Counted from the first letter of the stretch, positions 1,443 through 30,726 are shown. The stretch: DNA of 64,000 bases from an uncultured Kangiella sp. (GCA_964476655.1 CAYZBK010000001.1:34054-98053); one strand, 5' to 3'. The notes: a model not told the origin generated them from the sequence alone. Translations and numbers: made by a program.

Positions 1443-3677
<2,235 letters not shown>

Positions 3678-6692: not shown

Positions 6693-7151
6693 CTAAGAAA
6701 AAAAATCTGTTTCAGATTGAGGTGAAAACACATTCAACTTAGCTGAGCAAAGAAGCTTGTTTTGACAATAAATATTACAATCGTACCCCGCCAAACCGCT
6801 TTCTTCAAGATACAATTTTTGAGCTCTTATTCTTAAAGACTGGCCTAAATTAAAATTAACTACCTCTGACTCAAAGCGACGACATCCGAGTAGCAGGCCA
6901 ATTTTTATCGGTTCACTTGCTAACATTGCTTGAACCCCAGCATGAACACCTATTGACTGAGCCATATATTCGATGCCCACCCATGCAGGTACTCCACATG
7001 CTTTATTATCATAAAACAAGGACTGCTCGTTGATCGTTACTTCACAATCAACATATTCATCCTGAGCTTCTATTAAATTCGTTATTAAAATCATAGGTGA
7101 TGCGTGTGGGAGAAGATCCGCTAATGCCACTTCATGTAGGTCGGGTTTCAT
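6693..7151 (-). CDS. apeP: Hotdog-fold 3-hydroxyacyl-ACP dehydratase, ApeP position
   Basis: 152-aa ORF with an ATGA overlap to the upstream KS gene. Its size and position match the second dehydratase partner of APE clusters. The catalytic motif is not clearly recognisable by eye. Confidence 0.6.
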   Translation of the reverse strand: MKPDLHEVALADLLPHASPMILITNLIEAQDEYVDCEVTINEQSLFYDNKACGVPAWVGIEYMAQSIGVHAGVQAMLASEPIKIGLLLGCRRFESEVVNFNLGQSLRIRAQKLYLEESGLAGYDCNIYCQNKLLCSAKLNVFSPQSETDFFS

Positions 7152-8949: not shown

Positions 8950-8952
8950 AAT

Positions 8953-12004: not shown

Positions 12005-12420
12005 GACTCTAACCCCAATTTTTGAAATAAAACTTTAGGTGATGCAAATAACATTTCTTCCGTTTTTTTATTTACAGCAACTTGAATGGTATAGCCTTTA
12101 CTCAGTTTAGTTTGATTATTAGAGTCTCTAATTAAGTAATCTATTTTAAGACGATTTTCGTACTCAACTAACGTAGCAGAAACAATAATTCGTTGTCCAA
12201 AACGAGCAGGTTTAACATAACGAATTCGAACGTCTATTACCGGCCACAAAAACCCTGAATCTCTCATTTGCGGATAGTTATAATTGATTTTATCGAGCAG
12301 TGCGCAGCGCGCGATTTCGAAATATTTAAGATAATGTCCGTGCCATGCTACAGCCATCATATCAATATCATGAAAAGGAATTTTAACTTCAACCTTAGCT
12401 GTAATTACAAAGGGTTCCAT
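12001..12420 (-). CDS. apeK: 4HBT/YbgC-type acyl thioesterase, ApeK position
   Basis: 139-aa hotdog protein with the YbgC-type N-terminal motif VKIPFHDIDMMAVAWHGHYLKYFE. Its start codon abuts the ammonia-lyase stop (TAAATG). Confidence 0.75.
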   Translation of the reverse strand: MEPFVITAKVEVKIPFHDIDMMAVAWHGHYLKYFEIARCALLDKINYNYPQMRDSGFLWPVIDVRIRYVKPARFGQRIIVSATLVEYENRLKIDYLIRDSNNQTKLSKGYTIQVAVNKKTEEMLFASPKVLFQKLGLES

Positions 12421-13959
12421 TTAATCGTACAATGCCCAGTGTTTAGTCTGTATTAAAGTAACTAAATTACGCAACTCATTTTCTAAAACACGGTCTTCCT
12501 GTAAAAAGTCAGATTGCTCGAATAACCGACTACAAGTATTACGTATGCTTTCCGCAAGCTCGTTATTCTGAATATCGCCTTGGCGACATCGAATCTCTAC
12601 ACCTTGGCAAGCAACCATTAAACTAGCCGCAGCCACTTGCTCTGTAAGGTCTAGAATACGCAAACAATCCCTAGCAGCAATAGTTCCCATACTCACCTTA
12701 TCTTGATTGTGGCACTCTGTGGAGCGAGAAAAAACACTGGCTGGCATTGTTTGCTTTAGAGCTTCGGCTGTCCATGCAGACACGCCAATTTGTACGGCTT
12801 TAAATCCATGATTGATCGTTCTACGACTTTCTTCACTACCTGATAAATTAGCGGGTAAACCATGATTAAATTTAGTATCCATTAATAATGCCATCTGACG
12901 ATCCATTAGATCTGCAAGGTTTGCAACACAATTTTTCATTGAATCCATAACAAAGGCAATGTGACCGCCATAAAAATGTCCTCCATGAAGTACATGTTCC
13001 CCTTCTCCATCGATGATTGGATTATCATTTGCGCTGTTTAATTCATTCTCTATGTCTCGTTTCATCCATGGTAATGCATCTCGTAACACCCCTATAATGT
13101 GTGGCGCACATCTAATTGAGTAACGGTCTTGCAAACGAGAAGAATTTCGAGGCTGCTCATGATGATTTAAGTCACTACGGATCCAGCGAGCCACATCTTG
13201 TTGACCTTGATGAGGTTTAACGCTAAATAGTTTTTCGTCAAAGTGTCCGCTGTTCCCCATTAACGCGATTGATGCCAAGGCTGTAATTCGAGTCGTAAGC
13301 TGCGATAAATATTCTGCACGCGACCATGCTAAAGCTGCTAACGCCGTCATGACGGCTGTCCCGTTCATAATAGCTAAGCCTTCTTTAGGTAGCAAACCAA
13401 CAGGTTCCATTCCTAGTTCATTTAATACATCTATTGCTGGTCTTTTTTCTCCCTTGTATCGTAAGTCTCGTTCGCCAACCATTGCAGCTGCAACATAAGA
13501 TAAAGGCGTTAGATCGCCGCTAGCACCAACAGAACCTTCTTCTGGAATTATGGGGGTAGCTCTGTGATTAATCATCAATTCGAGTTGCTGCAATAACCTA
13601 TATCTTACTCCCGAAAACCCTTGCCCTAAAGACGCTAACCGAGTTGCGAGTATTGCAACAGCGTGATGCTCATCAAAGTGTCGCCCAAGGCCACATCCAT
13701 GAAAACGGCTTAGATGAAGTGGTAATTCATGAACAAGGTGAGGAGGTACAAAAACGGTACAAGAATCACCATAACCAGTGGTAACACCATAAATAACACC
13801 ATCCTCTTTTAATAGTTTTTCCAGAAAGCTGGCTCCACGCCTAATCAGTGCAATATAATTATCACTTTGATTCAGCTGCACACCTTTCTTGCCAAAAGCA
13901 ATTGCCACAATATCTTCAATTGTTATATGACTATCACCAAATACCACTAATTGTTTCAT
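12421..13959 (-). CDS. MIO-dependent aromatic amino acid ammonia-lyase (HAL/PAL/TAL family)
   Basis: 512 aa. The MIO-forming triad Ala146-Ser147-Gly148 sits in GSVGASGDLTPLS (nt 13516-13524). The conserved Tyr loop is IYGVTTGYG, and the remaining family blocks are present. See the finding on the selectivity dyad. Confidence 0.88.
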   Translation of the reverse strand: MKQLVVFGDSHITIEDIVAIAFGKKGVQLNQSDNYIALIRRGASFLEKLLKEDGVIYGVTTGYGDSCTVFVPPHLVHELPLHLSRFHGCGLGRHFDEHHAVAILATRLASLGQGFSGVRYRLLQQLELMINHRATPIIPEEGSVGASGDLTPLSYVAAAMVGERDLRYKGEKRPAIDVLNELGMEPVGLLPKEGLAIMNGTAVMTALAALAWSRAEYLSQLTTRITALASIALMGNSGHFDEKLFSVKPHQGQQDVARWIRSDLNHHEQPRNSSRLQDRYSIRCAPHIIGVLRDALPWMKRDIENELNSANDNPIIDGEGEHVLHGGHFYGGHIAFVMDSMKNCVANLADLMDRQMALLMDTKFNHGLPANLSGSEESRRTINHGFKAVQIGVSAWTAEALKQTMPASVFSRSTECHNQDKVSMGTIAARDCLRILDLTEQVAAASLMVACQGVEIRCRQGDIQNNELAESIRNTCSRLFEQSDFLQEDRVLENELRNLVTLIQTKHWALYD

Positions 13960-13965
13960 TTAAAA

Positions 13966-15717
13966 TTACTCGTTAGAGGATAAAGAATGCTTTTGCTCTC
14001 TCTGCACTTTATCACTATTCCAAAAATCAAAAAAATTAAACCATTGAAAAGGAAATCTCAATGCATAATGTTCTAAACGTAATGCATAACGTTCAATAAT
14101 TTGTTGCAATATTTTTTGTCGCTGTTTTCGCGGTAAACTGATCCCTTTAGATGAAAACTTCTCAAAATAAATTTTGTGTTGATTTCCGTCCTGCAGGCAA
14201 AACATTAAATAAACAGGACAATCCATTAAGCTTGCTATTATAAATGGCCCTTGTGGAAAAGGTGCCAAATCACCTAAAAAAGGTACATAATTTACTCGAC
14301 CAGCAACACTAGTTGAAGTTCTATCCCCAACGATAACTAAAACCTCACCCTTATCCACCTTCTCTTTTAAACGCATGGCCATATCAGGCCCCAAGTTTGA
14401 AATTTGAATTAAATTCACATCATATTCTGGATTAGCTCGCTTTAATTGAGCGCTAAATTTTTGCGCATTGTTGCTAAAAACAATAGCATTAATTACTAAA
14501 TTAGATTCATATTTGGATAGGGCTCGTCCAAGCTCTAAATTTCCTAAATGTGATCCAATAAATACAGCCCCTTTCTTAGATTGCACAAGTTTATCAAATT
14601 CTTGACGATCAACAAACTTAATGCTCTCTGGCGCAATATCTCCCATCCAAGAAGAAAGCTTGTCAATACCAGCTCTGCCAAAGCTCATAAAATGTCTAAA
14701 ACTGTCTAACCAATTTGGGGCCTTTGCAAACGACTGTTTATCTCTTATATACACCCTACGTAAAAACTGTTGAGAATAACCTCTGGCGGTTTTCCCCGTC
14801 AAGAAAAAATACCCTATAATAGGATACAACATTATTATAAAAGAACGACGGCCAAATAAACGATAAGCAGCAAGGATCAAAGATAAGCCGAAATGATTTC
14901 CTCGCTCTTGCTGGCTAGACCAATGTGTATCTAATTTTTTTTCAGTGGTTAATTTATTTGTTATTTCCAATGAATGATTTGAAGAAAACTTACGACCTAA
15001 CAACCTAGGTAAACGCAATAACATTCCTAAGAATAAACGACTATGCATTTTAGTAATCGCTATATTATCTTTCAAAGCTCTAAAATTTGAAATTCCATCT
15101 TGCGGATAAATAACACGAGTTGGTATAAATTCTACAGATACTCCCTGCCAAAATAGTTTTACTATAATTTCTGTATCAAAATCCATATGGGAACCTATAT
15201 GAGTTTTTTTCATTAGATTACAACATGCCTCTAATGGATAAACTCTAAAGCCGCACATTGAATCTTTAATTTTAAAAGATAATGTTTCAATCCACACCCA
15301 AAAATGAGTTATATAGCGACCATACAAACGTGCTTTTGGAATAGAATCATCGTAAATAGGAGAGCCAGAAATCAACGACATTGGTTTCGATGTTGATAAA
15401 TTTAATAATTTATCAACATCGTCGCATGAATGTTGTCCATCCGCATCAATTTGTAATCCATGACTGTAACCAGCTTCAAATGCTTTTTCAAAAGCTAATG
15501 TTACGGCAACACCTTTACCACTATTTGTAGGTAACCTCAATAAAGTTACATCAGGGTATTTTTTTATCAGTTGCTGTAATGATTCTTGAGTAGAAGCATC
15601 ACTCCCATCGTCAATTATAAAGCATTTTAAATCCTGTAAATGCATAGCATCCACAACAGCTTCTATCGTCTTTCCATGATTATAGATTGGTATAATTGCA
15701 CAAGGTGAATAATTCAT
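13966..15717 (-). CDS. apeJ: Fusion protein: N-terminal family-2 glycosyltransferase, TM segments, C-terminal LpxL/HtrB-type lipid acyltransferase; ApeJ position
   Basis: The N-terminus (IIPIYNHGKTI, IIDDGSDAS, QIDADGQH) is GT2-like. Hydrophobic helices lie around aa 275-310. The C-terminal half has an HX4E block (GSHLGNLE) typical of lauroyl/myristoyl acyltransferases. Confidence 0.7.
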   Translation of the reverse strand: MNYSPCAIIPIYNHGKTIEAVVDAMHLQDLKCFIIDDGSDASTQESLQQLIKKYPDVTLLRLPTNSGKGVAVTLAFEKAFEAGYSHGLQIDADGQHSCDDVDKLLNLSTSKPMSLISGSPIYDDSIPKARLYGRYITHFWVWIETLSFKIKDSMCGFRVYPLEACCNLMKKTHIGSHMDFDTEIIVKLFWQGVSVEFIPTRVIYPQDGISNFRALKDNIAITKMHSRLFLGMLLRLPRLLGRKFSSNHSLEITNKLTTEKKLDTHWSSQQERGNHFGLSLILAAYRLFGRRSFIIMLYPIIGYFFLTGKTARGYSQQFLRRVYIRDKQSFAKAPNWLDSFRHFMSFGRAGIDKLSSWMGDIAPESIKFVDRQEFDKLVQSKKGAVFIGSHLGNLELGRALSKYESNLVINAIVFSNNAQKFSAQLKRANPEYDVNLIQISNLGPDMAMRLKEKVDKGEVLVIVGDRTSTSVAGRVNYVPFLGDLAPFPQGPFIIASLMDCPVYLMFCLQDGNQHKIYFEKFSSKGISLPRKQRQKILQQIIERYALRLEHYALRFPFQWFNFFDFWNSDKVQREQKHSLSSNE

Positions 15718-15718
15718 G

Positions 15719-16060
15719 TTAGCGATCCAACAACAACCGACCGGACGAATATTTTTTTTCGTTAGTGGAATAAGTAAACGTAATTTTTCTTTTTTCTGGC
15801 TGATAATTTAGTAGTAAAAATATTTGTGTATTTGGCACAATAATCGAGTGGAATTTTATATTTTCTAAACGAGTAAATTCACCAAGATCAGAAAAGTAAT
15901 GCCGAGCAAAAGATTCAGCCCAATAAATTTGAGCGACACCAGGTAACACTGGATGATCAGGAAAATGTCCTTCAAAAAACCTAATTGATGGTAGAATTCT
16001 GAGTTCCAAGGTTACTTGATTACCTTCTATGCTCTGGGACAAAACACAAGGTTTGTTCAT
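15719..16060 (-). CDS. apeI: FabZ/FabA-like 3-hydroxyacyl-ACP dehydratase, ApeI position
   Basis: 113 aa with the active-site motif HFPDHPVLPGV. 4-nt overlap with the ligase gene. Confidence 0.8.
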   Translation of the reverse strand: MNKPCVLSQSIEGNQVTLELRILPSIRFFEGHFPDHPVLPGVAQIYWAESFARHYFSDLGEFTRLENIKFHSIIVPNTQIFLLLNYQPEKRKITFTYSTNEKKYSSGRLLLDR

Positions 16061-17469
16061 GAAATTTCCTTCTTATTAAACAAGCATTTCAATTTTTCCT
16101 GTGTCACCTTCCCTAGTGAATCTCGAGGAAAATCAGAGACGTATCGCCATTTTCTAGGAAGAATGATTTTTTCATAATATGCAGACAATAGTTCTCTTAA
16201 TTTTAAGGCCATAATTCTTCGCCCACTTTTTTTGAATGCCAATTGACCTTCTTTCGAAAGAATTATAACACCAACAAGTTGATCTCTAGAGCCCGTTAAA
16301 ACTAATAATTTAACATCATCAATCCAAACATGCTTTTTCAATCGCAATTCCATTTCGGATAATGACAAACGTTTTTCTTCTATTTTAACAATCCTATCTA
16401 TACGTCCATTTAACAAAAAAGTCTTGTCGTCAAAAAGTTCGATCCGGTCTCCCATGACGAACCAATCGTCATCAAGTAAATAGGGAGATTTTACCAATAA
16501 AGCACTATCAATGTCTCGTAAGTGAATATTAACGTTATCAAATGTTACCCAGCGCTGAAGTTCTTTTATTTGTTGCCTATAAGCAACACCACCAGTTTCT
16601 GTACTACCAAAAACTTCAATTGGCGCCTGCTCAAATTCTTGTCTAAAATATAACGCTGTTTGCCAAGAAAGCGGCCCCCCAGAAGAAAATATTTTTTTCA
16701 CACCAGGTTTAAGTGTTGAAATATTAATAAGTTGAATCATTCTTTTTAAATGTGCTGGACTGGAAACTAATAATGATGACAGCCCTAGGTCATTTAATCG
16801 CTGTACGTATGCCAATAAGGTCTCAGGATACTCAAACTGTAGGTTAACAATTGCTCTACCAGAACACAGTGGCCATAATAATCGAAATAAAAGTCCGTAA
16901 ATATGTTGATGGGACACTGTTGCGAGAGTTATACACTTATCGACTATCTTTCCCCACAAAAATTCTAACCCTTCAATTTCAGAAGATAAATTATTAATAT
17001 TTTTAAGTATTTTTTTGGGGTCACCTGTTGTACCTGAGGTAAAAATCTCAATGCAAACTGTGTCTGGCTCTAGAGCTTCAAAAACAATTTGATTAGTTGC
17101 GTCACATAAAAGATTAGTTTTTTTATTAATAATTGATGGTATGTGGACTGTATAGAAAGACTCTAAATTTTGACAATCAGTTATCAAGCCAAAATCTTTT
17201 TCTGGTAACGCTGTTAACGTTTTTGGCAGACCGTTGGCAGGTAATATTATTTTTTTATTTGAATGTAATATTGCAAAAAAACCCACAGAAAACCAATAGC
17301 TATCATCACAAACTAAAACCCAACTTTCTTTCTTTCCCAAATACTTCATTACTAACGATATATGATAAGAAAACTCTTCCCAATAGATAATTTTTTCATC
17401 AAAATATGCAACAATTGTATTTGCTTCACGTTTTTTCGCTAATTCGTACAAAGGTATATATTGGCTCAT
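16057..17469 (-). CDS. apeH: AMP-dependent aryl/acyl-ACP (CoA) ligase, starter-unit adenylating enzyme, ApeH position
   Basis: AMP-binding signature FTSGTTGDPKK plus FGSTETGG. 470 aa. Confidence 0.82.
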   Translation of the reverse strand: MSQYIPLYELAKKREANTIVAYFDEKIIYWEEFSYHISLVMKYLGKKESWVLVCDDSYWFSVGFFAILHSNKKIILPANGLPKTLTALPEKDFGLITDCQNLESFYTVHIPSIINKKTNLLCDATNQIVFEALEPDTVCIEIFTSGTTGDPKKILKNINNLSSEIEGLEFLWGKIVDKCITLATVSHQHIYGLLFRLLWPLCSGRAIVNLQFEYPETLLAYVQRLNDLGLSSLLVSSPAHLKRMIQLINISTLKPGVKKIFSSGGPLSWQTALYFRQEFEQAPIEVFGSTETGGVAYRQQIKELQRWVTFDNVNIHLRDIDSALLVKSPYLLDDDWFVMGDRIELFDDKTFLLNGRIDRIVKIEEKRLSLSEMELRLKKHVWIDDVKLLVLTGSRDQLVGVIILSKEGQLAFKKSGRRIMALKLRELLSAYYEKIILPRKWRYVSDFPRDSLGKVTQEKLKCLFNKKEIS

Positions 17470-18032
17470 ATTTTTTCATTCCGTCGCAATACAATTCGTA
17501 CACAGTATTCAATAGAAAATAAGCAACCAATTAATAAATATGACAACAAACCATTGTAAAATGTCCAAACCTTCAAGCTTGAATAAAAACAAGTATAAAG
17601 GGATATGCTCATGTTAATTAAGAAAAATACACACCATACATAAGTTACTTTTCGTGTATATCTAACTCCAGCAACGGAAAGCTCGGGCTCGGTAATTCGA
17701 GCAATACGTTCTACAGCAGATTGCGACTGCCACAAGGAAGATACAAACACTAAAAGTAAGCTAAAACTAATCAAGCTTGGATATAATCTTAATAATAATT
17801 GCGAATTAGAAAAATAGACCGCTATACCAAGAGTACACCCCAATAAAATGATTGGTAGAAATTGCGACGAAAGTTGAAGAATATGTTTAGCCTGAACTAA
17901 AAAACGCAACATCATCAAACCAACCAAACCTAATCCCATCATCTTCGGTTGCATATAATTTAATCCAAAATACACCGATAGCGGGTATGCGATTACCAAT
18001 ATAGAAACCAAGATATTTAGCAGCCGTTTCAT
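17466..18032 (-). CDS. apeG: Integral membrane protein of unknown function, ApeG position
   Basis: 188 aa with about 5 hydrophobic helices and no catalytic motif recognised. 4-nt overlap with the ligase gene. Confidence 0.6.
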   Translation of the reverse strand: MKRLLNILVSILVIAYPLSVYFGLNYMQPKMMGLGLVGLMMLRFLVQAKHILQLSSQFLPIILLGCTLGIAVYFSNSQLLLRLYPSLISFSLLLVFVSSLWQSQSAVERIARITEPELSVAGVRYTRKVTYVWCVFFLINMSISLYTCFYSSLKVWTFYNGLLSYLLIGCLFSIEYCVRIVLRRNEKI

Positions 18033-18047
18033 TTTTAGGTAGTTAGT

Positions 18048-18296
18048 TTATGCCGCAGTTATTTCATACACATTATTAACAATATCTTCAACATTGCGCA
18101 CCAACTTAAATTCTTCGGGTTTGATTTTTGTTCCTGTTAATTCTTGTAACTTAACAACAAGATCAACAGCGTCGATACTGTCCAAATCTAAATCCTCATA
18201 CAACTTAGCTTGCATTGTAATATCCTCTGCATCAATTTCAAATAATTCAATCAATACTCGTTTTACTTCTTTAAAAACTTCTTCTTTACTTTGCAT
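18048..18296 (-). CDS. apeF: Acyl carrier protein (second of a tandem pair), ApeF position
   Basis: 82 aa, acidic, with the phosphopantetheine site DLDLDSIDAVDL. Confidence 0.85.
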   Translation of the reverse strand: MQSKEEVFKEVKRVLIELFEIDAEDITMQAKLYEDLDLDSIDAVDLVVKLQELTGTKIKPEEFKLVRNVEDIVNNVYEITAA

Positions 18297-18305
18297 TTTT
18301 CTTTC

Positions 18306-18566
18306 CTAATTAGAACGTTCTTTTTCAATAAATTTTGTTAGATTTGCGATAGAAGCAAAATGTTCTTTATTAGCTTCCGAGTTAGAATCCATCTTAACTT
18401 GATACTTTTTTTGCAATGCGACACCAAGTTCTAATGCGTCAATAGAATCTAAACCTAAACCTTCTACAAAAAGCGCTTCATGGCTATCAATATCTTTCAC
18501 TTCGACATCTTCTAAATCCAATACATCAATAATAATTTCTTTCAATTCAATCTCAAGACTGCTCAT
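18306..18566 (-). CDS. apeE: Acyl carrier protein (first of a tandem pair), ApeE position
   Basis: Phosphopantetheine site GLGLDSIDALEL. The ORF track begins at a TTG (18587). The ATG at 18566 (MSSLEIELK...) is the more likely start, and it still overlaps the upstream acyltransferase stop by 14 nt. Confidence 0.82.
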   Translation of the reverse strand: MSSLEIELKEIIIDVLDLEDVEVKDIDSHEALFVEGLGLDSIDALELGVALQKKYQVKMDSNSEANKEHFASIANLTKFIEKERSN

Positions 18567-19350
18567 AACGGAGTATTTCCTTTTCAAAATAATTCTCTAA
18601 ATACCGTGTTAATTTTCTAACCGATAAACTTGGAACATCTTCTGCACTAATAATTGTTTTAACTTTTATCAATTCTCCAACCTCTAACCGTAGATGAAAA
18701 CGTCTTTTTGGAATTTGATACCACTTTAGACCTTTAGTTAAAGCACTTGGAGTACATGTTATTACTATAGGTGTTATATCTATATCTTTTTCAATAGCTA
18801 TTCTCGCGGGAGCTCGTTGAAATTTCATTCTTTTTCCAGAAGGTGAACGGGTTCCTTCAGGAAAAATAATCAAACTATTTTCTCGTTCAAGAGACAACAC
18901 GCAATCATTTATTAATTGCTGAGGTGCTGAACCATTATTAACATAACCAGCGGCCAATACAACTCCTCGTAAAAAAGGATTGCGAAATAAAGCACCTTTA
19001 ACAATACAATTCGATCTCGGAACCAGTGACATAATAAGAACAACATCTAATAGCGTCGGATGATTTGCTAAGAAAAGTTGAACTTTGTTGCTTGTAAGTT
19101 TTTCTTTGCCTACAACCTCGGTCGACATTACTCCCAGCAATTTTGTAAATGCTATATGACATCTAAACGAGACATGTATTAATTTTTGCGCTCGTTGATG
19201 TCTTTTATTTTTATTTGTTGTTGTTAAGCAAATGATAGGGAAAACCATTTGACTAATTACTAACCCCCCAATTCCAAACGTAATAAAAGATATTCCTGTT
19301 GCAATTACTCGCCAAAAATAATTAATAGTGCTCACGGAGTTAATCAACAT
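18553..19350 (-). CDS. apeD: PlsC-family lysophospholipid/glycerolipid acyltransferase, ApeD position
   Basis: HX4D motif (ANHPTLLD) and FPEGTRS block. N-terminal TM helices. 265 aa. Confidence 0.8.
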   Translation of the reverse strand: MLINSVSTINYFWRVIATGISFITFGIGGLVISQMVFPIICLTTTNKNKRHQRAQKLIHVSFRCHIAFTKLLGVMSTEVVGKEKLTSNKVQLFLANHPTLLDVVLIMSLVPRSNCIVKGALFRNPFLRGVVLAAGYVNNGSAPQQLINDCVLSLERENSLIIFPEGTRSPSGKRMKFQRAPARIAIEKDIDITPIVITCTPSALTKGLKWYQIPKRRFHLRLEVGELIKVKTIISAEDVPSLSVRKLTRYLENYFEKEILRYEQS

Positions 19351-20077
19351 AACGTTTAAATTGCCAACTCAATCGATTAGAGTGCATTGCTAAATATTTA
19401 TTGCTACTCAGTAAGTACTTTAAAAAGAGCAATGGGCGCATACCTGAAGTAACTGCATTGCCATTATTCCCACTAAAACTCAAATTAAATTTATCTCCGC
19501 TACCAGTACCACTCAACAATATAGCTAATCCATACAGGCATTCTGTTTTATCTTTAAATCTCGAAAAAATACTTGGCAACGGCATATCACAGCAAACTAA
19601 TAAAACTTTTTTTTCTTCTTCATTTTTAATGACTGCTGCAGCCTCTAAAAATGATTGTTCAAAACTATCTATTCCGGCAGATAAAACCGTCGAAACTGAC
19701 GTATCTTTTCTTGAAATAGAGTAAAGCCCAGAACCTGTATTGGGAACTGAAAGACTAAATCCCATTGGTGAAAGAAGCTCTTGCTCAGCAATGGATTGCA
19801 ACAATTCAACTGTACGATGCAATTCCCCGTGTCGCGAGCAAAAGACTGTTGCTACAGACTGTTGCGGTTCCAAACATCCATTTGCTACATAAAGCGCCAT
19901 ACGACTTAATTGACTGAGTCTACGGCGCAACATTGGAGCAACAAATGTAACATCTGGAGTACCTTGCTCCATGATATTGCACTCTCCACGAGCCCAAGCT
20001 TCCCAGTCCTGCCTTTTTTCTACTCCAGGCGCCCAAGCGCACCATTTTTCAATCGACAAATCAATATTATTTGACAT
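19340..20077 (-). CDS. apeC: Half-size ketosynthase-like chain-length-factor, ApeC position
   Basis: 245 aa with similarity to a KS N-terminal half only. The nucleophile position reads SAGIDS (Gly instead of Cys), and the His-His C-terminal half is absent. It is the first gene of the operon. Confidence 0.7.
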   Translation of the reverse strand: MSNNIDLSIEKWCAWAPGVEKRQDWEAWARGECNIMEQGTPDVTFVAPMLRRRLSQLSRMALYVANGCLEPQQSVATVFCSRHGELHRTVELLQSIAEQELLSPMGFSLSVPNTGSGLYSISRKDTSVSTVLSAGIDSFEQSFLEAAAVIKNEEEKKVLLVCCDMPLPSIFSRFKDKTECLYGLAILLSGTGSGDKFNLSFSGNNGNAVTSGMRPLLFLKYLLSSNKYLAMHSNRLSWQFKRYVD

Positions 20078-21785: not shown

Positions 21786-22403
21786 TTAGAATTGGTAGTG
21801 TACTGATAATGTAATGGCGCTAAACGTTAAATCAATTTCTTCATCATATAGGTTAAAACCGTAGATAGAATTTTCACTTCTTTCAAGATTTAATTTTGCG
21901 TATTTGTAATCTATGCGAGCTTTTACTCCAGAATTAAAACTATACTGAACCCCTGTTCCTATAGTGGGTTCTATACTATTCCATGTGATTTCATAATCAT
22001 AAAAGGAGTTAACACTCTGTTTATACGCAATATATTGAAGACCCGCTTTAAAGTATACCGCTGTATTTTGATTAAAAATATACGTAAATTTAGGTGTGAA
22101 AGAAGAGCCAAAAATAGACGCATCAAGGTTTGTATTTATGTCCTTAAATTTTTCCGAATTTGAAATATCAAATTCAATGCTAAACCAATCTGTAAATTTA
22201 TACCCACTAAAAACAGTTAGTAATCGTACAGTTTCGGTATTTGATTGAAGATAAGGTTGATTTTTTGGGTTAATAGACAAATTTGTACTTCCTAATCCAG
22301 CGCCGACCATCCAGCCCCGCCGTTCCGCATCCAAATCACTAGCCGATAAATGACCTGAAATTACCGAGATCAACACTCCAAATATAAATAACTTCACAAA
22401 CAC
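21786..22403 (-). CDS. Small outer-membrane beta-barrel protein (OmpA-like / opacity-porin type barrel)
   Basis: Signal peptide FIFGVLISVISGHLSA, alternating aromatic/polar strand pattern, and C-terminal ...SVHYQF (terminal Phe). The tracked start is GTG. The GTG two codons downstream (22397) has better spacing to AGAGG. Confidence 0.65.
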   Translation of the reverse strand: MFVKLFIFGVLISVISGHLSASDLDAERRGWMVGAGLGSTNLSINPKNQPYLQSNTETVRLLTVFSGYKFTDWFSIEFDISNSEKFKDINTNLDASIFGSSFTPKFTYIFNQNTAVYFKAGLQYIAYKQSVNSFYDYEITWNSIEPTIGTGVQYSFNSGVKARIDYKYAKLNLERSENSIYGFNLYDEEIDLTFSAITLSVHYQF

Positions 22404-22655: not shown

Positions 22656-22732
<77 letters not shown>

Positions 22733-22763: not shown

Positions 22764-23897
22764 TTAAAAGGCTGACCAGCGGATCCCAAGAGAGAGTTTG
22801 TTTCGATCATAAGTATAAATATCATTTGCATTGGTATAATTTGCGTGTTCAAGATCTAAATATAAGGCAAAGTTAGTTTCAAATAAGGTTGCAATGACCC
22901 ATTCATAACCGACTGATATGGAAATGCCTTGTTTTCCACTAGTTTCTTCATCACTGACTGTTAAACCTGGCTCTATTTGATTGACTAAGATAAAATTTGA
23001 ATACCTAATTCGAGTATTAAAATAATGATGTACACCAAATTGATGTTTTCCCGAAATAGCTAAATAGCCACTTAGTGCATTGTAATAACCTGAACCATTA
23101 TCTTCTCTATTTTCTAAATTAAAACTGTATTTCCAACGGACTCCGGATTCTGGATGGTAAATATATCCAATATTAAAGGCTTGATAAGTATAAGCCAAAT
23201 CGGTATTTAATAGATCAATGCCATCAAGATCTTTAATTCTTTTATCAACAAAACTACGCTCTGTATGTGTACCATTAACATAAAACCGCCCGACTTCTGA
23301 TGCCTTATACAACATTCCCAACTGAATTTTTTGCTGTTGGTAATCTAAATTACTTAAACCTGCAATATTATATTGCTGATAACTCTTGTCTCGTCCTCGA
23401 TAAATAAAGTCGAATGTTAGATTTTTATAAGGCAAATATGAAAGCTGCACTAAACTATTGGTTTGATTTGAATCATAACGATCAGCGATGGATTGTCCAC
23501 CAAATGTCGCCACTAAACCTGACGATTTACTGACATAAGTTTTATCTTTGTTACGAGCATTAACTGAAAATTTATATTTAAACTTTTCACCTTTAATTTT
23601 AAAAGATGATTTAAGTGAAATATTAGCTGATAAATTATATTGGTCTCCCCTACGATCATCAATGTACTGGGTTTTATTGGCTTTGGCGCTAAGGTAGACG
23701 GTCTTAAAAAAGCTTTTGCGTGCTTTGAATTCTACTTCGGCATAATTTTGTTCAGTGACCAATAAATTAGAAGACAATTGATGAGGGTTACTATCAACAC
23801 CATATAACACAGTCGCATTGATTGCTTCATTACTCGAAGCGATAGCCAATGACGGCGACAGCACCCCAACTACTAACCAAAAGCTATTTTTAAGCAT
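22764..23897 (-). CDS. Outer-membrane beta-barrel protein of unknown function
   Basis: Signal peptide MLKNSFWLVVGVLSPSLAIASS. The 377-aa sequence has Tyr/Gly/Asn-rich alternating strands throughout and ends ...LSLGIRWSAF (terminal Phe OMP signature). It is co-directional with the TPR and ATP-grasp genes. Confidence 0.7.
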   Translation of the reverse strand: MLKNSFWLVVGVLSPSLAIASSNEAINATVLYGVDSNPHQLSSNLLVTEQNYAEVEFKARKSFFKTVYLSAKANKTQYIDDRRGDQYNLSANISLKSSFKIKGEKFKYKFSVNARNKDKTYVSKSSGLVATFGGQSIADRYDSNQTNSLVQLSYLPYKNLTFDFIYRGRDKSYQQYNIAGLSNLDYQQQKIQLGMLYKASEVGRFYVNGTHTERSFVDKRIKDLDGIDLLNTDLAYTYQAFNIGYIYHPESGVRWKYSFNLENREDNGSGYYNALSGYLAISGKHQFGVHHYFNTRIRYSNFILVNQIEPGLTVSDEETSGKQGISISVGYEWVIATLFETNFALYLDLEHANYTNANDIYTYDRNKLSLGIRWSAF

Positions 23898-24031
23898 AAA
23901 ACATCTTAGCCTGTAAATTTTTAATCATTATAGAATTAACCTTGGATATTTCGACATTACTACTTTCATCTTTAATTGCATGGACAGAAAAATGCCTTAT
24001 TTAAGTAGCTTTCATACTTTTCTCAAGCAGT

Positions 24032-25963
24032 TTATTTTAATGTGTTATATATGTCCAGCGCCGCTTTATAGTTGGGATCTAATTTGAGCACCAATTCTAA
24101 CTCTTCTCGGCATTGTTGAAATTGATCCGCTTCACAAAACGTACGAGCATATAAAGTACGCCCTCTTTTAGAGTCTGCTTTGACATATAAGTAATCTTTT
24201 AATAATAACTGTGCTTGTTCAATCTCTTTGTTATTAAAATATAATAGAGCAAGTTGATATTGGGCATCACCATAGCTTGATGATATTGACAACAGTTCAG
24301 TATATTGAGATATAGATTGCTCCAGCTCACCCAATTTATTCAAGTAATTTGCCATGAAATAACGTGCTCGTGTATATCGAGGATATTTAGCTAACAAAGC
24401 TTTCAATTCTAAAATCGCCTTATCCTGCTCCTCTAACAACCAATAAAGTTTCACTTTTTGTAGAGTCCAACGCTTCTTTTGTTTGATTTTTAAAGCTAAG
24501 GAAATTAAACGCATAGACTCATTATAATGATTTGCTTTTTCTTCAGAAAGAGAGGCCTTATATAATAACTCAGGATTTTCTTTGATAAATGGAAACAATT
24601 TCTTGTAAATAGTTACAGCATCATTAAACCGTTTTAATTCAATATAAATATCCGCTATTTTTTGTTGGGACTGTAGGTAATATAAAAAATCAGGTTTAAC
24701 TTGTAGCAAGTATTTTAATGCTGTTTTAGGTCGTTTTAACTTGTCATAATTCAATGCTAGCATCAAAAAAGCTAAACCTTCTATTTTTTTTCTTTTTATA
24801 TTCTTTTTAAATAACTTGATGGACTCAGTATGATTATTTGATAACAGCTTTAAAACTGCATCACTTAATCGACGTTCTGACTTTTTTTGAATATTCTTTT
24901 TAGCAAAATCTAATTGTTTTTTTGCATTAATATATTTATTCAACATCATATATGAAAATGACAGTTTTAATCGCACATCAAAATTACTATTTTTTATGCT
25001 TTTGGCTGTATTTAGTTGCTGAATTGCTGGCAAATAATCCATTCGGCTAATTAAATAATTTGCATACTCAACTCTTGTCCGGAAATTGTTTTTTTCAAGA
25101 GATACAGCTTTAGTGAAAGCATCAATTGTTAAAAGATGCTCCCCTAACTTTTGTGATGTTTTAGCAATATTCCTCCAAGTTAAAACACTTTTAGGTCTAT
25201 ATTCAATCGACTTTTTAAAGTTTTTCAATGCTATATCGTATTTTTTTTGCTGATAGAGTGACTCACCTAACCCTGAGTAACTTTTAGCTTTTTTGTCCGA
25301 AGATGTAAGCTTGATAGCTTTTTTAAAAATCACCTCTGCTTTATTAAATTCTTTTTGTTCTAAGTAAAGCAGCCCTAAATTAATTAAGCCTGCTTGGCTT
25401 AATGGAGAAACACTAATAAATTTTTCATAATGCTCAACCGCCTCTTCTTTATCGCCTATTTTTGAAAGCAAACTCGCTTTATAAAATAATAGATCGTTTT
25501 TCATTAACTCTATCTTAGATAGACTATTAACAATATTTAATGCTTTACGATAATGCTTTTCATTTTTTAATTTTTTAATTGCAAACAACATGGACTTCAA
25601 TTGCTGATCAGAAGGTAAACGATTTAGTAGCGAAATCTTATTGCGATTAAATGCAGAAGCGGACATTACAGTTTGATAAATTACGCCCCCCACTTGACGA
25701 ATTATAGGCTCCTCAAATTTAGAGATTTCTGACATTTCAATTTCCTTACTTTCTTTATTATTAGAAAGTAATTGAACATCAACGCGATGATTAAATGACG
25801 ACTCTAAATAGGCTTCATAATAGACGGCTAGAATAATAAGTATAATAAAAACAAAACTGCTAGGGTACGCATTGCCCAATCTTATTTTATTTTGAGGTTG
25901 TTTATTTGTAAGATGCGCTTCGTATTCTTTGGACGCTGTTGCTTTATTCTTGGCTGAGTTCAT
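24032..25963 (-). CDS. Inner-membrane-anchored periplasmic TPR-repeat protein
   Basis: A single TM helix (SSFVFIILIILAVYYEAYL) follows a short basic N-terminus. About 580 aa of repeated A/Y/L-patterned 34-residue TPR-like units come after it. The likely start is ATG 25963 (MNSAKNK..., GAGGG upstream). The tracked start at 26014 would overlap the upstream gene by 71 nt. Confidence 0.75.
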   Translation of the reverse strand: MNSAKNKATASKEYEAHLTNKQPQNKIRLGNAYPSSFVFIILIILAVYYEAYLESSFNHRVDVQLLSNNKESKEIEMSEISKFEEPIIRQVGGVIYQTVMSASAFNRNKISLLNRLPSDQQLKSMLFAIKKLKNEKHYRKALNIVNSLSKIELMKNDLLFYKASLLSKIGDKEEAVEHYEKFISVSPLSQAGLINLGLLYLEQKEFNKAEVIFKKAIKLTSSDKKAKSYSGLGESLYQQKKYDIALKNFKKSIEYRPKSVLTWRNIAKTSQKLGEHLLTIDAFTKAVSLEKNNFRTRVEYANYLISRMDYLPAIQQLNTAKSIKNSNFDVRLKLSFSYMMLNKYINAKKQLDFAKKNIQKKSERRLSDAVLKLLSNNHTESIKLFKKNIKRKKIEGLAFLMLALNYDKLKRPKTALKYLLQVKPDFLYYLQSQQKIADIYIELKRFNDAVTIYKKLFPFIKENPELLYKASLSEEKANHYNESMRLISLALKIKQKKRWTLQKVKLYWLLEEQDKAILELKALLAKYPRYTRARYFMANYLNKLGELEQSISQYTELLSISSSYGDAQYQLALLYFNNKEIEQAQLLLKDYLYVKADSKRGRTLYARTFCEADQFQQCREELELVLKLDPNYKAALDIYNTLK

Positions 25964-28355
25964 TATAAAACCCTCGCTCTTGGATATTTTGTATTTCAAT
26001 GCCCGGTCGACCATTCACCTCTAAGACTAGCGGCCCTTGATCTTTGGTTAAGCAAATATCAATGCCTATATATCCTAACGGGATAGCTTTTTGACACTGT
26101 TTTGAGATGCTCAGTATTTTTTCCCAGCCAGGCACCTCAAAATTTATTAATTCTTTTTTGCTGTCAGGATGAATCGTTATGTCTTTTTTGTTTAGCTTTG
26201 CTGTTATTGTCATGCCTGTTTCAATATCAATACCTACGCCGACAGCACCTTGATGCAAATTTGCCTTACCGGAAGATTTTGATGTTGGGATCCTTAACAT
26301 CGCACTAATAACTTTATTTTTACATAATATCACTCGCACATCACAAAGCCCAAAAGGTGAAATTTGTTGTAACAATTCATGCTGTATAATTAAAGGCTCA
26401 AAATAAGCAACATCACTCTCACCATTTTGCGAATAACTACCCGAAAGAATTTCTACACAGTGTTTTTGCAGATCTAAAATATCCATTTTTTCGTCATTAC
26501 CTCTATAAAAGAATCCATTTTCATAACATGTAATTATTTTAATCCCATTGCCTTGCGAACCATTATTGGGTTTTAAAGCAAAGCCTTCTTGTTGTAATAC
26601 AGCGAAGGGGATCTGCTCTAAGTCTGAGAGTTCTTTAACCACAAAAACCGTTTCAGGAATGGGAATATCATAAGTTAATAATATACTTTTAGTTTCAAGC
26701 TTATCTGCAGCTAAATCCAGAAGCGCCTTGCTATTCAATTGATAAATAAATTCTTGATTACGGCTATTAATGCCCAGCACTGGTTTAGCTCTATCGCCTA
26801 AAATTTTTTTAAAACGAAAGCTTTCACTTAAACGAATACCTGTCCATTGACCAATATATATTTGTCCAGCAAGGATCAATAAAAAGAATTCGGGATGATG
26901 AGAAAACATCCCTTGCAACATGAATGACATCAATAAAAAATAGCATCCAGTAATTGCAGCCAAGGTACCTACAACTCTAAAAAATAGTTCCTTCCAATCA
27001 TTTTCCTCAGTTAATCGATGAATTTTTTCTGCGATAAAACTAATAATTATCACTGGAAATAATGATAACATTCCAAATTCGAGTCGTTCATTCGGATCAA
27101 TAAGCAATAAAGCTAAGACAAACACCATGGTATTAATTGTAATGATAGCGGCCAAACGAGGGATTTTTAATAATTTCAATTTTTCTAGATAATGATAAGC
27201 AATAAAACTAGTTAAAAGAATAAACGAAAAACCTGCAATTCCTTTTGTATATCCTATAAAAACACACGCTGCAGCAATTAACATCGGCAAAAAGATACCA
27301 AAGGTTTTAATACCTACAATATTCCGCAAAAAAGTTATTAATAATGTGCAAATAGGAAACAATAAAAACAAACTAATTGTTTCTGGTGCTAACCCCATTG
27401 ATAATAACAACCCTGTAATATCAATATTATCTATGTTGTTTTTACTTATATGATTATAGATTGCGGGTGCAACCAAACTATGACTTGAGGAAAACTGATA
27501 ATCAAAATTAATATCAACAGAATGTTTAAACAGGTTTTTATCTCCTCGATATAATTCTAAATAATTCTCTGGCAATTGTGCGAAGTTTCCATTAGTTGGT
27601 CCAAAAGGTATCCATTGATTTTCTATATACACCTCTAACCATTGATGTGATGTTTTTTTTGATATGCCATTTAAAATTACTCCACCAACCAAACGTGCTG
27701 GAATGTTACTAAGACGTGCCAACGCAATAAACAATCGACTCTTACCATTGCAACTTGCCGTTTTTAAACGTAATGCTGTAACAGCGTCAGTCACACCTTT
27801 GAAGGGCGCTGACTCTATTTTGTTATAGGTATAATTATATATTCTGTTTAATGTGTTAAGCATATTGTGTTGATTATTTATTCCAAGTTCTTTCCATAAA
27901 GATATTATTTCTGGATGTCTAAACTGTATATTGTTCGTAGGTTGCAAGTAAGGCAATAACGCTTCAGAATATATTTTAGGTATTAATAGCTCTGAACTAA
28001 TAACATATTTAATTGTTTGTAAAGAAAGAACATAACGATATGCTACTTGCTGCGCAGAACTAACCCCCGACCAATGCACAATTTTTCCACTAGGATCATT
28101 ACTTACTATCAGTTCTAAACCATTATTTATTATTTGTTCGCTAAGTATTTTTTGCCTTTCATTTTCTTCAGGTAGGTAAGTATGAATGACAATATCTCGG
28201 TCGTCAGATTGATAAGAAACGTTTAATTTAAAAGAATATATTTTGGTGGGAACAAGATTATAGGTAAACTCTTCAAAGCTTTTAAAATTAAAAGAAAATA
28301 ATATAAAAAAACTGATTACCAATAATAAATCGATATTTTTTGTTATTAATTTCAA
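25944..28355 (-). CDS. Fusion protein: signal-anchor + transglutaminase-like domain + 7TM domain + RimK-type (alpha-L-glutamate ligase-like) ATP-grasp domain
   Basis: The transglutaminase core is TASCNGKSRLF...IPARLVGG...SHQWLEVYIENQWIPFGPT (aa 200-255). Seven hydrophobic helices span aa 327-504. The C-terminal ATP-grasp has LGINSRNQEFIY, DKLETK, FALKPNNGSQGNGI and IGIDICLT..GPLVLEVNGRPG. The only available start is TTG at 28355. Confidence 0.8.
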   Translation of the reverse strand: MKLITKNIDLLLVISFFILFSFNFKSFEEFTYNLVPTKIYSFKLNVSYQSDDRDIVIHTYLPEENERQKILSEQIINNGLELIVSNDPSGKIVHWSGVSSAQQVAYRYVLSLQTIKYVISSELLIPKIYSEALLPYLQPTNNIQFRHPEIISLWKELGINNQHNMLNTLNRIYNYTYNKIESAPFKGVTDAVTALRLKTASCNGKSRLFIALARLSNIPARLVGGVILNGISKKTSHQWLEVYIENQWIPFGPTNGNFAQLPENYLELYRGDKNLFKHSVDINFDYQFSSSHSLVAPAIYNHISKNNIDNIDITGLLLSMGLAPETISLFLLFPICTLLITFLRNIVGIKTFGIFLPMLIAAACVFIGYTKGIAGFSFILLTSFIAYHYLEKLKLLKIPRLAAIITINTMVFVLALLLIDPNERLEFGMLSLFPVIIISFIAEKIHRLTEENDWKELFFRVVGTLAAITGCYFLLMSFMLQGMFSHHPEFFLLILAGQIYIGQWTGIRLSESFRFKKILGDRAKPVLGINSRNQEFIYQLNSKALLDLAADKLETKSILLTYDIPIPETVFVVKELSDLEQIPFAVLQQEGFALKPNNGSQGNGIKIITCYENGFFYRGNDEKMDILDLQKHCVEILSGSYSQNGESDVAYFEPLIIQHELLQQISPFGLCDVRVILCKNKVISAMLRIPTSKSSGKANLHQGAVGVGIDIETGMTITAKLNKKDITIHPDSKKELINFEVPGWEKILSISKQCQKAIPLGYIGIDICLTKDQGPLVLEVNGRPGIEIQNIQERGFYNELSQE

Positions 28356-28359
28356 ATAA

Positions 28360-28392
28360 TTATATTTCCTATATATTTCCTATATATTTCCT
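28360..28392 (-). repeat. Tandem 11-bp repeat x3 (coding-strand unit AGGAAATATAT) in the 41-nt spacer upstream of the fusion gene
   Basis: Plus-strand copies are ttatatttcct (28360-28370, 1 mismatch), atatatttcct (28371-28381) and atatatttcct (28382-28392). Confidence 0.9.
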
Positions 28393-28396
28393 GCTA

Positions 28397-29257
28397 TTAG
28401 TCGCCAAGAAGAAGTTGCGGATCGAGCCGAGTCGAAAACCAATTTAATCGCCAGTCCAAATGAGGCCCTGTTGCTCTTCCTGTTGAACCCATAGTCGCTA
28501 TTTTTTCGCCTTGAATAATCTTTTGTCCTACTTTCACCTTAAGCTTTTCTAAATGAATGTAGGTGGTATTAATTCCAAAACCGTGATCAATAATGATTGT
28601 TCCACCGGAATAAAATAAATCTTTTTCTGCAAAAGTAACAATACCATCTGCGGGAGAAATAACTGTTGTACCGACTTTATTAGCAATATCTAGACCGTAA
28701 TGTGGTCGTTTCTTCTCACCATTTAAAATCCTTTGACTACCATAAACGCCTGAAATTCGACCTTTAGCGGGTGAAACAAACGGCATTAAAAACGCCATTT
28801 GTTCAGAAAAAATGTTTCTAGCTTGTTTAACTTTAATTGTCTCACTTTTAATTCTTTTTAATGTTTGTTTAGATTTTGGATTAACTTTGTTTTTATCTAA
28901 ACCATTAATCTTTTCAATTTTCCACTCACGTTTTTTAATCGCTATTGGAAAATCTATAACCTCATTATTTGAATGGACTTTTAAAACCACTGAAGAGTTT
29001 TCCTCACGGCCAACTCCAAAAACAAATTCACCCGTTTCAGATAACGACAAGGGTTTTTCAGCTAAAAATATATCACCATCAACCAAAATTCGTCCAACAA
29101 CCATGCTACCTTGTTGAGGTTGTTTGGTAAAAATCTGAACAACGGGTGGTTTAGCATCAATTAAACCGCCATAAAGAAATAAAACGATAATCACAATTTG
29201 AAAAAATATTTTATTAAACGCTTTGTTGCCACCATTTTTTATATTATTGCAATTCAT
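28397..29257 (-). CDS. M23 (LytM-type) family peptidase, secreted or membrane-anchored
   Basis: Hydrophobic leader FFQIVIIVLFLYGGLIDA. M23 blocks are HYGLD (HxxxD), IIIDHGFG, TYIHL and GSTGRATGPHLDW. AAGGA Shine-Dalgarno sequence 7 nt before ATG 29257. Confidence 0.8.
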   Translation of the reverse strand: MNCNNIKNGGNKAFNKIFFQIVIIVLFLYGGLIDAKPPVVQIFTKQPQQGSMVVGRILVDGDIFLAEKPLSLSETGEFVFGVGREENSSVVLKVHSNNEVIDFPIAIKKREWKIEKINGLDKNKVNPKSKQTLKRIKSETIKVKQARNIFSEQMAFLMPFVSPAKGRISGVYGSQRILNGEKKRPHYGLDIANKVGTTVISPADGIVTFAEKDLFYSGGTIIIDHGFGINTTYIHLEKLKVKVGQKIIQGEKIATMGSTGRATGPHLDWRLNWFSTRLDPQLLLGD

Positions 29258-29307: not shown

Positions 29308-30726
29308 TTAAGCTTGAGACTCTCTTTTTTCAATAAAACTCAACGCCATATCAATTCGAGAAATTGTTCGTTGCTGCCCTACCCACTCAAGGGTTAAGTC
29401 AATTGCCGGTGACATACCTCCACCGGTAACCGCTACACGTAATGGCATTCCCACTTTCCCCATTCCAATATCTAGCTCACTGGCTGTTTCATCAACACAT
29501 GATTGAATCACAGACGCACTCCAATCATTGATTGCTAATAATTTTGATTTAATCGTTTCTAACGCCACTTTAGCAACCGGTCTTAAATGTTTTTTTGCGG
29601 CCTTTGGCTCAAATTCATCAAAGTCCTTATAATATGTTGATATCATTTGAGTTAATTCCTTAAGCGTTTGAGCGCGTTCTGCAAACTCAGGAATTAACGT
29701 TTTAAGGTTAGGACCATTAGATAAATCAATGCTTTGGTGATCTAAGTGCCACTGAAGATGAGGCAGTAATTGGTCAAAAGGTGTCGATTTAATGTATTGC
29801 TGATTAAGCCATTTTAATTTATCGGTATTAAATGCCGATGGCGCTTTATTAATATCATTAATATTAAATAATGATTTCATTTCATCCACAGAAAAAATCT
29901 CTTGATCGCCATGTGACCAGCCTAAACGCACTAAATAATTCAGTAAAGCTTCTGGTAAATAACCATCATCCCTATATTGCATAACGCTAACTGCACCATG
30001 ACGCTTCGATAATTTTTTACCATCATCGCCTAATATCATTGGCACATGACCGTATTCGGGTGCTGTTGCGCCAAGCGCGCTAAAAATATTTATTTGTCGT
30101 GGTGTATTGTTTAAATGATCATCGCCTCTAATCACCTGTGAAATTCCCATATCCATATCATCGACAACAACGGTAAAATTATAAGTCGGTGAGCCATCTG
30201 TTCGAGCAATGATTAAATCATCTAGCTCTTTGTTTTCGAAGGTTATTTCACCTTTAACCACATCAGTAAATGTTACCGCGCCCTCTTTTGGATTTTTAAA
30301 GCGAATAACATGCGGTAAAGAGTGATCTTGCTTTGATACCAACAAATCACGACATTTTCCATCATAACGTGGTTTTTGTTTGTTACTCATTTGTGTTTCT
30401 CTGAGCGCATCAATACGCTCTTTAGAACAAAAACAAGGGTAAGCCTTACCTTCAGCCAATAATTGGTTAATAACTTTTTTATAACGATCAAATCGTTTAG
30501 TTTGAAATATTGGACCTTCATCCCAGGCTAAATTTAACCATTTCATGCCGTCCATTATAGCTTCTACTGCTTCAGGCGTAGAGCGTTCAAGATCGGTATC
30601 TTCTATACGAAGGACAAATTGCCCATTGTTTGCTTGAGCATGCAGCCATGAATAAAGCGCTGTTCGGGCGCCTCCAACATGCAGATAGCCGGTTGGAGAT
30701 GGTGCAAATCTTGTTTTAACTGACAT
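29308..30726 (-). CDS. gltX: Glutamyl-tRNA synthetase
   Basis: [20 protein letters not shown] (HIGH region) and KLSKRHG (KMSKS region). 472 aa. ATG start. Confidence 0.93.

Follow-up and report, generated by a model that had tools for sequence, protein, structure and literature searches.

A stretch of 64,000 nucleotides (nt) of DNA from an uncultured Kangiella sp. (GCA_964476655.1 CAYZBK010000001.1:34054-98053; here called the window) carries on its minus strand a set of genes centered on an unusual membrane protein. In this 803-residue protein, a transglutaminase-like domain, a seven-transmembrane (7TM) block and an ATP-grasp ligase are joined in one chain. A gene for a tetratricopeptide repeat (TPR) protein and a gene for an outer-membrane β-barrel follow it, and a gene for an M23 peptidase precedes it. 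Comparison across species shows that the conserved module is the fusion gene plus the TPR gene, usually with the barrel gene. Our best reading is that it represents a three-gene variant, with a two-gene core, of the Rlo envelope system of Pseudomonas aeruginosa.

Genes and domains at the locus

Open reading frame (ORF) calls, Pfam searches and an independent gene call agree with a first-pass annotation of the window on the four minus-strand genes, on how they adjoin and on the domains that they encode (Table 1). The M23 and fusion genes are separated by 41 nt, the fusion and TPR genes overlap by 20 nt, and 134 nt lie between the TPR and barrel genes. A tRNA-Arg(CCT) gene on the same strand, 31 nt past the barrel stop codon, marks the module's downstream end. 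The longest ORF of the TPR gene is 24032-26014 (660 residues); the start at 25963, which gives a protein of 643 residues, was also picked by the independent gene call on a near-identical source contig. Hydropathy analysis indicated signal-like N termini for the M23 and 377-residue proteins and one helix, at about residues 44 to 62, for the TPR protein. For the 803-residue protein it indicated an N-terminal anchor helix and a hydrophobic block at about residues 315 to 475, in agreement with the topology proposed earlier, in which a periplasmic transglutaminase-like domain is linked through a polytopic block to a ligase in the cytoplasm; the single helix of the TPR protein likewise fits the anchor predicted for it. 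Two substitutions and one indel set the window apart from the 170-kb source metagenome contig (ENA ERZ27262693 k141_408535). The indel, at position 10786 of that contig's locus (L083; about 25570 in the window), breaks the contig's TPR gene into calls of 131 and 514 residues, while the window copy is intact; it could be either an assembly error or a real variant.

Table 1. Features of the module and its flanks in the window
Feature	Coordinates	Strand	Basis or remark
gltX	29308-30726	-	ORF call
M23 peptidase gene, 286 aa	28397-29257	-	Peptidase_M23 PF01551, E 2e-29
RloB-RloC-type fusion gene, 803 aa, TTG start	25944-28355	-	Pfam and NCBIfam
Predicted periplasmic transglutaminase-like (papain-fold) domain, about aa 25-310	27426-28283	-	Cys202, His237, Gly252
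7TM_transglut membrane domain, about aa 311-520	26796-27425	-	PF14402, E 2e-36
Predicted cytoplasmic RloC-like ATP-grasp ligase domain, about aa 521-803	25944-26795	-	PF14397, E 6e-64
TPR gene, 643 aa	24032-25963	-	Multiple TPR Pfam matches
Barrel gene, 377 aa, ends ...RWSAF	22764-23897	-	AlphaFold2, C-terminal Phe, signal-like N terminus
tRNA-Arg(CCT)	22656-22732	-	ARAGORN and Rfam
205-aa OMP_b-brl/OmpA-like gene	21786-22403		Minus strand, beyond tRNA-Arg, separate from the module

In Pfam, the 803-residue protein matches Transglut_core at residues 160 to 253, 7TM_transglut at 325 to 518 and ATPgrasp_ST at 532 to 800 (E value, 6e-64), domains whose original computational description is reportedly that of Iyer et al. 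in 2009. The ATP-grasp part matches the NCBIfam model TIGR02291 ("alpha-L-glutamate ligase-like") at an E value of 8e-74 and 248 bits, below the cutoff of 314 bits, which is not surprising for a family member that is fused and divergent. The fusion also matches the RloB model NF052267 ("osmotic stress tolerance membrane protein RloB") at 1e-31 and 110 bits, against a cutoff of 900. By sequence, the protein is a fused relative of RloB and RloC. The fused family comprises 417 homologous clusters at an E value of ≤1e-10, of which the top 120 are without exception full length and share one domain set, and its carriers include Kangiellaceae, Aliikangiella, Cycloclasticus, Cellvibrionaceae and Henriciella; at least 580 stretches in a species-level genome collection match the fusion. 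When modeled alone with AlphaFold2, the 7TM domain is all-helical, with a predicted local distance difference test (pLDDT) score of 74, and a comparison of this model with the PDB for a transporter-like fold returned nothing significant (best E value, 1.8; template-modeling score [TM-score], <0.35).

AlphaFold2 folds the 377-residue protein into a 16-strand β-barrel with a mean pLDDT of 87.7 which, together with the C-terminal Phe, bears out the outer-membrane barrel proposed in the first-pass annotation. It had no match in Pfam or NCBIfam at an E value of ≤0.01, and the porin, OmpA and OMP_b-brl family models did not recognize it, so that membership in a porin or OmpA-type family, which the first-pass annotation had named as counting against its proposal, finds no support by sequence; a sequence search against the PDB was likewise negative. 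Scanning 26 barrel homologues at an E value of ≤5 yielded just weak, isolated matches in single members and none to DUF3570, a UniRef name borne by one homologue alone, an Aliikangiella coralliicola protein. In a Foldseek search of the PDB, the top match was the PelB barrel (9h80_M; E value, 8e-8; TM-score, 0.48), with AlgE at 0.47 to 0.49 and BcsC at 0.45, and substrate-specific uptake channels (FadL, OccAB, chitoporin and CymA) were also among the fold matches. PelB, AlgE and BcsC, exopolysaccharide barrels already brought up in the first-pass annotation, are among the top folds, but no TM-score exceeds 0.5 and porins do about equally well, so the search identifies a generic 16-strand outer-membrane barrel and little beyond.

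A profile search of 1.84 billion representatives found 464 relatives of the barrel; most of the best 150 are stand-alone proteins of 360 to 400 residues, and TPR-barrel fusions, sought as Rosetta-stone evidence, were absent from these 150. By strand parity, a crude criterion, the predicted lumen-facing residues of the window barrel include 27 Lys and Arg versus 10 Asp and Glu, with similar figures in close relatives; such a positive lumen would be weakly compatible with anionic cargo. At the loci of the most distant relatives recovered (L084 and L089; E value to the profile, about 1e-22), the barrel gene is followed by FecR-domain genes and a gene for a large protein.

Linkage of the genes across species

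Gene linkage was assessed at the 80 best species loci, drawn from Gamma- and Alphaproteobacteria with up to 10 kb of flank each, by searching the locus ORFs with the window proteins and a barrel hidden Markov model and by all-against-all clustering. The TPR gene was scored where at least 1.9 kb of downstream sequence was available (n = 71), and the barrel gene was scored where there was enough room for it (n = 66). At all 71 informative loci a TPR gene lies directly downstream of the fusion gene on the same strand. Translational coupling is suggested by the median gap, -14 nt, and all 76 TPR proteins examined begin with an N-terminal hydrophobic helix. A barrel homologue follows as the third gene at 41 of the 66 loci (median gap, 23 nt). 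The barrel-bearing loci belong to gammaproteobacteria (Kangiellaceae, Cycloclasticus, Cellvibrionaceae, Bermanella, Oleispira, Alteromonadaceae, Steroidobacteraceae, Arenicella and Thiodiazotropha) and to the Alphaproteobacteria Kordiimonadaceae and Oceanicaulis, and the fusion-TPR-barrel order was found again even with a barrel just 23% identical to that of the window. Flanking genes vary from locus to locus while the order of the fusion, the TPR gene and, where present, the barrel gene recurs.

At the barrel-less loci, unrelated genes follow the TPR gene. Two Henriciella-type loci (L017, 14334-16041; L027, 14339-16141) have in this place a BlaI-like repressor gene and a gene for a BlaR1 (M56)-M23 fusion. 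In three barrel-less loci of Kangiella sensu stricto (L043, L050 and L051), the TPR partner is about 80 to 100 residues longer, with longest ORFs of 714 to 739 residues.

The first-pass annotation had counted the M23 peptidase as a component of the module, and this part of its proposal did not stand, unlike the linkage of the fusion gene to the TPR gene and, at most loci, to the barrel gene. Upstream comparison across the 80 loci ruled the M23 gene out as a component: it precedes the fusion gene at only one of them (L003, the closest long relative), with a spacer of 22 nt and with gltX also kept, so that in the window and in L003 alike it lies between gltX and the fusion gene. At L002 (fusion protein, 70% identical), an M14 carboxypeptidase gene and not an M23 gene occupies the upstream position; elsewhere the fusion gene is preceded by genes for TrkH, an HDOD protein or a cytochrome c, or by a gene on the opposite strand. 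Since the upstream genes are not conserved across loci, the M23 gene is best regarded as a lineage-specific neighbor. Its product reads GPHLDW at residue 268, where the closest solved relative (PDB 2hsi) reads GPHMHW; this change of the second His of the HxH motif to Asp (HxD) puts its zinc peptidase activity in doubt. The M14 gene of L002, from a metagenome-assembled genome (MAG) of the Kangiellaceae, lies at 3425-4558 on the plus strand, 31 nt upstream of the fusion gene, and encodes an enzyme of the cytosolic-carboxypeptidase type (PF18027 and PF00246), whose eukaryotic relatives strip poly-glutamate tails. It occurs at one locus of the 80, and we treat it as an anecdote.

The periplasmic domain and the split Rlo system

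In P. aeruginosa, the related genes form the rloABC operon (Lormand et al., mBio 2025; PMC12239564). RloA is a secreted retropepsin that cuts poly-glutamate in vitro and is specific for it, RloB is described as an "inactive transglutaminase" joined to seven transmembrane helices, and RloC is a cytoplasmic ATP-grasp protein (PMC12239564). The hypo-osmotic lethality of a triple rloA mutant is suppressed when either rloB or rloC is deleted (PMC12239564), which fits the idea that RloB and RloC make something that reaches the periplasm. Besides osmotic tolerance, the rlo genes influence cell shape, biofilm formation and susceptibility to beta-lactams, and the authors tentatively tie the cell-shape, beta-lactam and hypo-osmotic phenotypes to peptidoglycan homeostasis (PMC12239564). 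The statement in the first-pass annotation that the transglutaminase-7TM/ATP-grasp association has no experimental function is therefore out of date, since its split form has genetic phenotypes.

The window module shares with the Rlo system the PF14402 membrane domain, a homologous ligase (PF14397/TIGR02291) and the predicted topology, with the transglutaminase fold in the periplasm and the ligase in the cytoplasm. It differs in four respects. First, rloB and rloC are separate genes in the Rlo system, whereas the window branch has one fused gene. Second, the Rlo protein carries the inactive PF14400 domain, while the window branch carries a Transglut_core domain with invariant Cys and His and an insertion of ~25 residues. 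Third, the rloA retropepsin gene is part of the Rlo operon; the window branch has no rloA nearby. Fourth, it has the TPR gene and often the barrel gene instead.

Split loci recovered from Legionella adelaidensis and Aeromonas conform to this contrast, with rloA (PF05618) directly upstream, followed by rloB (PF14400 and PF14402) and rloC (PF14397), and with no TPR or barrel gene within 7 kb. A metagenome scan gave four Aeromonas-like loci and a protein search gave Legionella only, so this control rests on two genera and the published Pseudomonas operon; the split family itself is much larger, with at least 6,305 clusters at an E value of ≤1e-5. Conversely, two RloA queries, which detect RloA across genera at about 1e-11, found no RloA-like ORF at an E value of ≤1 in the 80 fused loci or in the 64-kb window, and the D[TS]G[AS] motif is absent from every ORF of the window. 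The P. aeruginosa study makes no mention of TPR or barrel partners (PMC12239564). In the literature that we searched, which did not take in the 2009 survey, we found neither the fused, catalytically intact branch nor its TPR and barrel partners described, and a search on these domains, the TPR link and rlo follow-up work returned nothing beyond the report of Lormand et al. and a Shewanella vesiculation screen.

Alignment of 80 fused-family sequences showed that Cys202 and His237 are invariant (80/80 each) and that position 252 is Asp in 62 sequences, Gly in 17, including the window protein, and Cys in 1. These three positions fall on the Cys, His and Asp of a putative cysteine protease (PDB 3isr). 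In the ligase domain, K595 is present in all 80 sequences and E779 and N781 are each present in 79. Split RloB proteins from Aeromonas and Legionella, when aligned to the fused proteins, lack both the catalytic Cys and the catalytic His, as well as the segment of ~25 residues that the fused proteins carry; they match the "inactive" model PF14400, whereas the window fusion matches Transglut_core PF01841 and not PF14400. Judged by these residues, the fused branch keeps a transglutaminase core that is predicted to be catalytically intact. One reading, which we infer from the comparison, is that this branch retains a working periplasmic cysteine peptidase or transamidase and would hence do without RloA. 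Neither the intact core nor the lack of an RloA gene nearby had been remarked on in the first-pass annotation.

Gly252 (window 27600-27602) occurs in 16 of the 79 aligned locus sequences (L001 to L011, L025, L029, L031, L038 and L060). Loci of the Gly252 type have the barrel gene in every case in which the contig is long enough, and loci of the Asp type are found both with and without it.

Possible functions of the module

The constant TPR neighbor and the frequent barrel neighbor suggest that the product of the ligase leaves the cell. We propose that the module is a trans-envelope Rlo variant that exports this product outward or holds it at the surface, a proposal that we find about as easy to believe as to doubt. 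The cytoplasmic ATP-grasp ligase would spend ATP on making or lengthening an amide-linked product, which is probably a peptide or tail rich in Glu; this guess at its composition draws on the poly-glutamate specificity of RloA in the split system and on the relationship to TIGRFAM and RimK ligases. The 7TM domain would present the product at, or pass it to, the periplasmic face, where the Cys-His domain would cleave or transfer it, taking over the role of the secreted RloA retropepsin. The TPR protein and the 16-strand barrel would then carry the product over the periplasm and the outer membrane or hold it at the surface.

Several known systems resemble parts of this arrangement. RimK, the poly-alpha-glutamate ligase of ribosomal protein S6, which works with the retropepsin partner RimB, shares the ATP-grasp fold, and the C-terminal Mg/ATP motif region of the window ligase matches PF08443 (E value, 1e-9). 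However, the window ligase misses the RimK family cutoffs (TIGR00768, 55.6 versus 143.4 bits; PRK10446, 21.9 versus 331), is fused to a membrane domain and has no cytoplasmic RimB partner, and its target, unlike that of RimK, is presumably extracytoplasmic. Searches of the PDB gave the ATP-grasp domain weak matches to 5zct, 4iwx and 7qys. Synthase-dependent exopolysaccharide systems (AlgK/AlgE, PelB/PelC, BcsC and PgaA) follow a similar logic, in which an inner-membrane synthase is combined with a periplasmic TPR protein and a 16- to 18-strand barrel. Their synthase, however, is a glycosyltransferase, whereas the window module has an amide ligase. A helix anchors the window TPR protein in the inner membrane, and this protein is neither an outer-membrane lipoprotein nor fused to the barrel as in those systems, whose barrels share no sequence homology with that of the window and reach TM-scores of at most 0.5. 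Slam proteins likewise pair TPRs with a barrel, but the TPR_Slam match in the window is weak, at 33 bits, below the cutoff of 35.2, and further matches are faint; the window barrel has no DUF560 match and has 16 strands, and the window TPR and barrel are separate proteins. In Bacillus, PgsBCA/CapBCA and CapD provide a precedent in which a membrane-associated, ATP-dependent amide ligase makes poly-gamma-glutamate that is moved outward, after which a transpeptidase or hydrolase outside the cytoplasm anchors or releases it. The enzymes, however, belong to unrelated families with no homology seen here: PgsB is Mur-ligase-like and not an ATP-grasp enzyme. Moreover, the envelope is Gram positive, and there is no TPR protein or barrel.

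A number of observations weigh against the export proposal. The window fusion has Gly252 where most relatives keep the Asp of the triad. A channel role for the 7TM domain is unsupported, given that no structural relative was found in the PDB, and the family name of PF14397 in Pfam, "sugar-transfer associated," means that the acceptor of the ligase need not be a peptide. As for the barrel, OmpG, FadL and classical porins score like PelB, AlgE and BcsC, with all TM-scores at or below 0.5, and the net positive charge of the lumen is lost in distant homologues. Distant barrel relatives were found in other gene contexts, two beside FecR genes and one alone, although most of the contigs were too short to tell; the barrel family is therefore not exclusive to the module. 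Moreover, the barrel gene is absent from the locus in 25 of the 66 cases, namely in the Henriciella/Hyphomonas clade, Kangiella sensu stricto and one Hydrogenovibrio MAG.

In its boldest form, the export proposal would make the module the first example in diderms of synthase-dependent secretion of a nonribosomal poly-amino-acid, in which the ATP-grasp protein serves as polymerase and translocase of a poly-alpha-glutamate-like chain, the Cys-His transamidase releases or anchors that chain, and the TPR protein and barrel form the conduit. We consider this form rather unlikely. If it were true, the split RloABC systems of Pseudomonas and Vibrio would be the nonexporting version, in which the same periplasmic product is degraded by RloA.

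Among the alternatives, the one that survives best, though we judge it unlikely, is envelope modification, in which amino acid tails on a molecule that stays in the envelope (for example, peptidoglycan, a lipoprotein or an outer-membrane protein) are added or shortened by the ligase together with the Cys-His domain. The TPR protein and the barrel would then act as scaffold or target and not as a conduit. Such a role would agree with the tentative link of the P. aeruginosa rlo phenotypes to peptidoglycan homeostasis (PMC12239564), with the ability of transglutaminase-fold enzymes to catalyze transamidation and with the dispensability of the barrel gene at the 25 barrel-less loci. It leaves unexplained, however, why a dedicated barrel family that bears no other annotation accompanies the fusion-TPR pair at 41 loci in two proteobacterial classes, and the sole peptidoglycan enzyme nearby, the M23 peptidase, is not conserved.

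The best Pfam match of the ligase, ATPgrasp_ST ("sugar-transfer associated ATP-grasp"), and the use of TPR proteins and barrels as the outer parts of synthase-dependent polysaccharide export, with PelB, AlgE and BcsC among the top folds of the window barrel, raise a further alternative: the ligase might couple an amino acid through an amide bond to a sugar acid in a lipid-linked glycan or surface polysaccharide, which the TPR protein and barrel would export. We regard this as quite improbable. The 80 neighborhoods have no conserved polysaccharide genes, glycosyltransferase genes included, and the GT2 and epimerase genes at L030 are lineage specific. In the window module, the only enzyme domains are the transglutaminase core and the ATP-grasp domain, and RloA, the protease of the split system, is specific for poly-glutamate (PMC12239564).

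Uptake or recycling, with the barrel admitting an external peptide or polymer, the Cys-His domain cleaving it and the ligase regulating the process or reusing the pieces, would suit the fold matches to FadL, OccAB, chitoporin and CymA, but it is very improbable, as ATP-grasp ligases serve biosynthesis, the 80 neighborhoods show no conserved genes for transporters or binding proteins, and Rlo genetics point to a product made by RloB and RloC (PMC12239564). It is equally hard to credit a four-component system in which the M23 enzyme opens or links peptidoglycan, which the co-directional M23 gene (41 nt upstream here and 22 nt in L003) and the lack of a predicted terminator between the M23 and fusion genes might have favored, because the comparative data, with M23 upstream at 1 of 80 loci, largely refute it.

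The export proposal gives the Rlo system a directional hypothesis. The fused branch adds three comparative clues to what RloB and RloC make: the membrane part and the ligase act as one unit, the periplasmic domain is possibly catalytic, and the genes are wired to a TPR protein and a barrel. Together, these clues point to an extracytoplasmic, possibly exported, product. The fused branch also offers simpler, one-protein systems in cultured marine bacteria in which to hunt for that product; carriers of all three genes in culture include Aliikangiella marina GYP-15, A. coralliicola M105, Pseudomaricurvus alkylphenolicus KCTC 32386 and Marinifaba aquimaris SM1970. If the product proved to be a secreted poly-amino-acid, the module would represent a new pathway class for envelope or matrix polymers of Gram-negative bacteria.

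Scans of the window for promoters and terminators gave counts no higher than those in shuffled sequence and are thus uninformative on transcription units. At some distance from the module, at about 4623-20077 on the minus strand, lies a long co-directional cluster that looks like a pathway for lipids or pigments of the aryl-polyene type. Its genes code for ketosynthases, a ketoreductase, an AMP-dependent ligase, a GT2 protein and an acyltransferase, together with an aromatic amino acid ammonia-lyase (12421-13959) and two small acyl carrier proteins (18048-18587).

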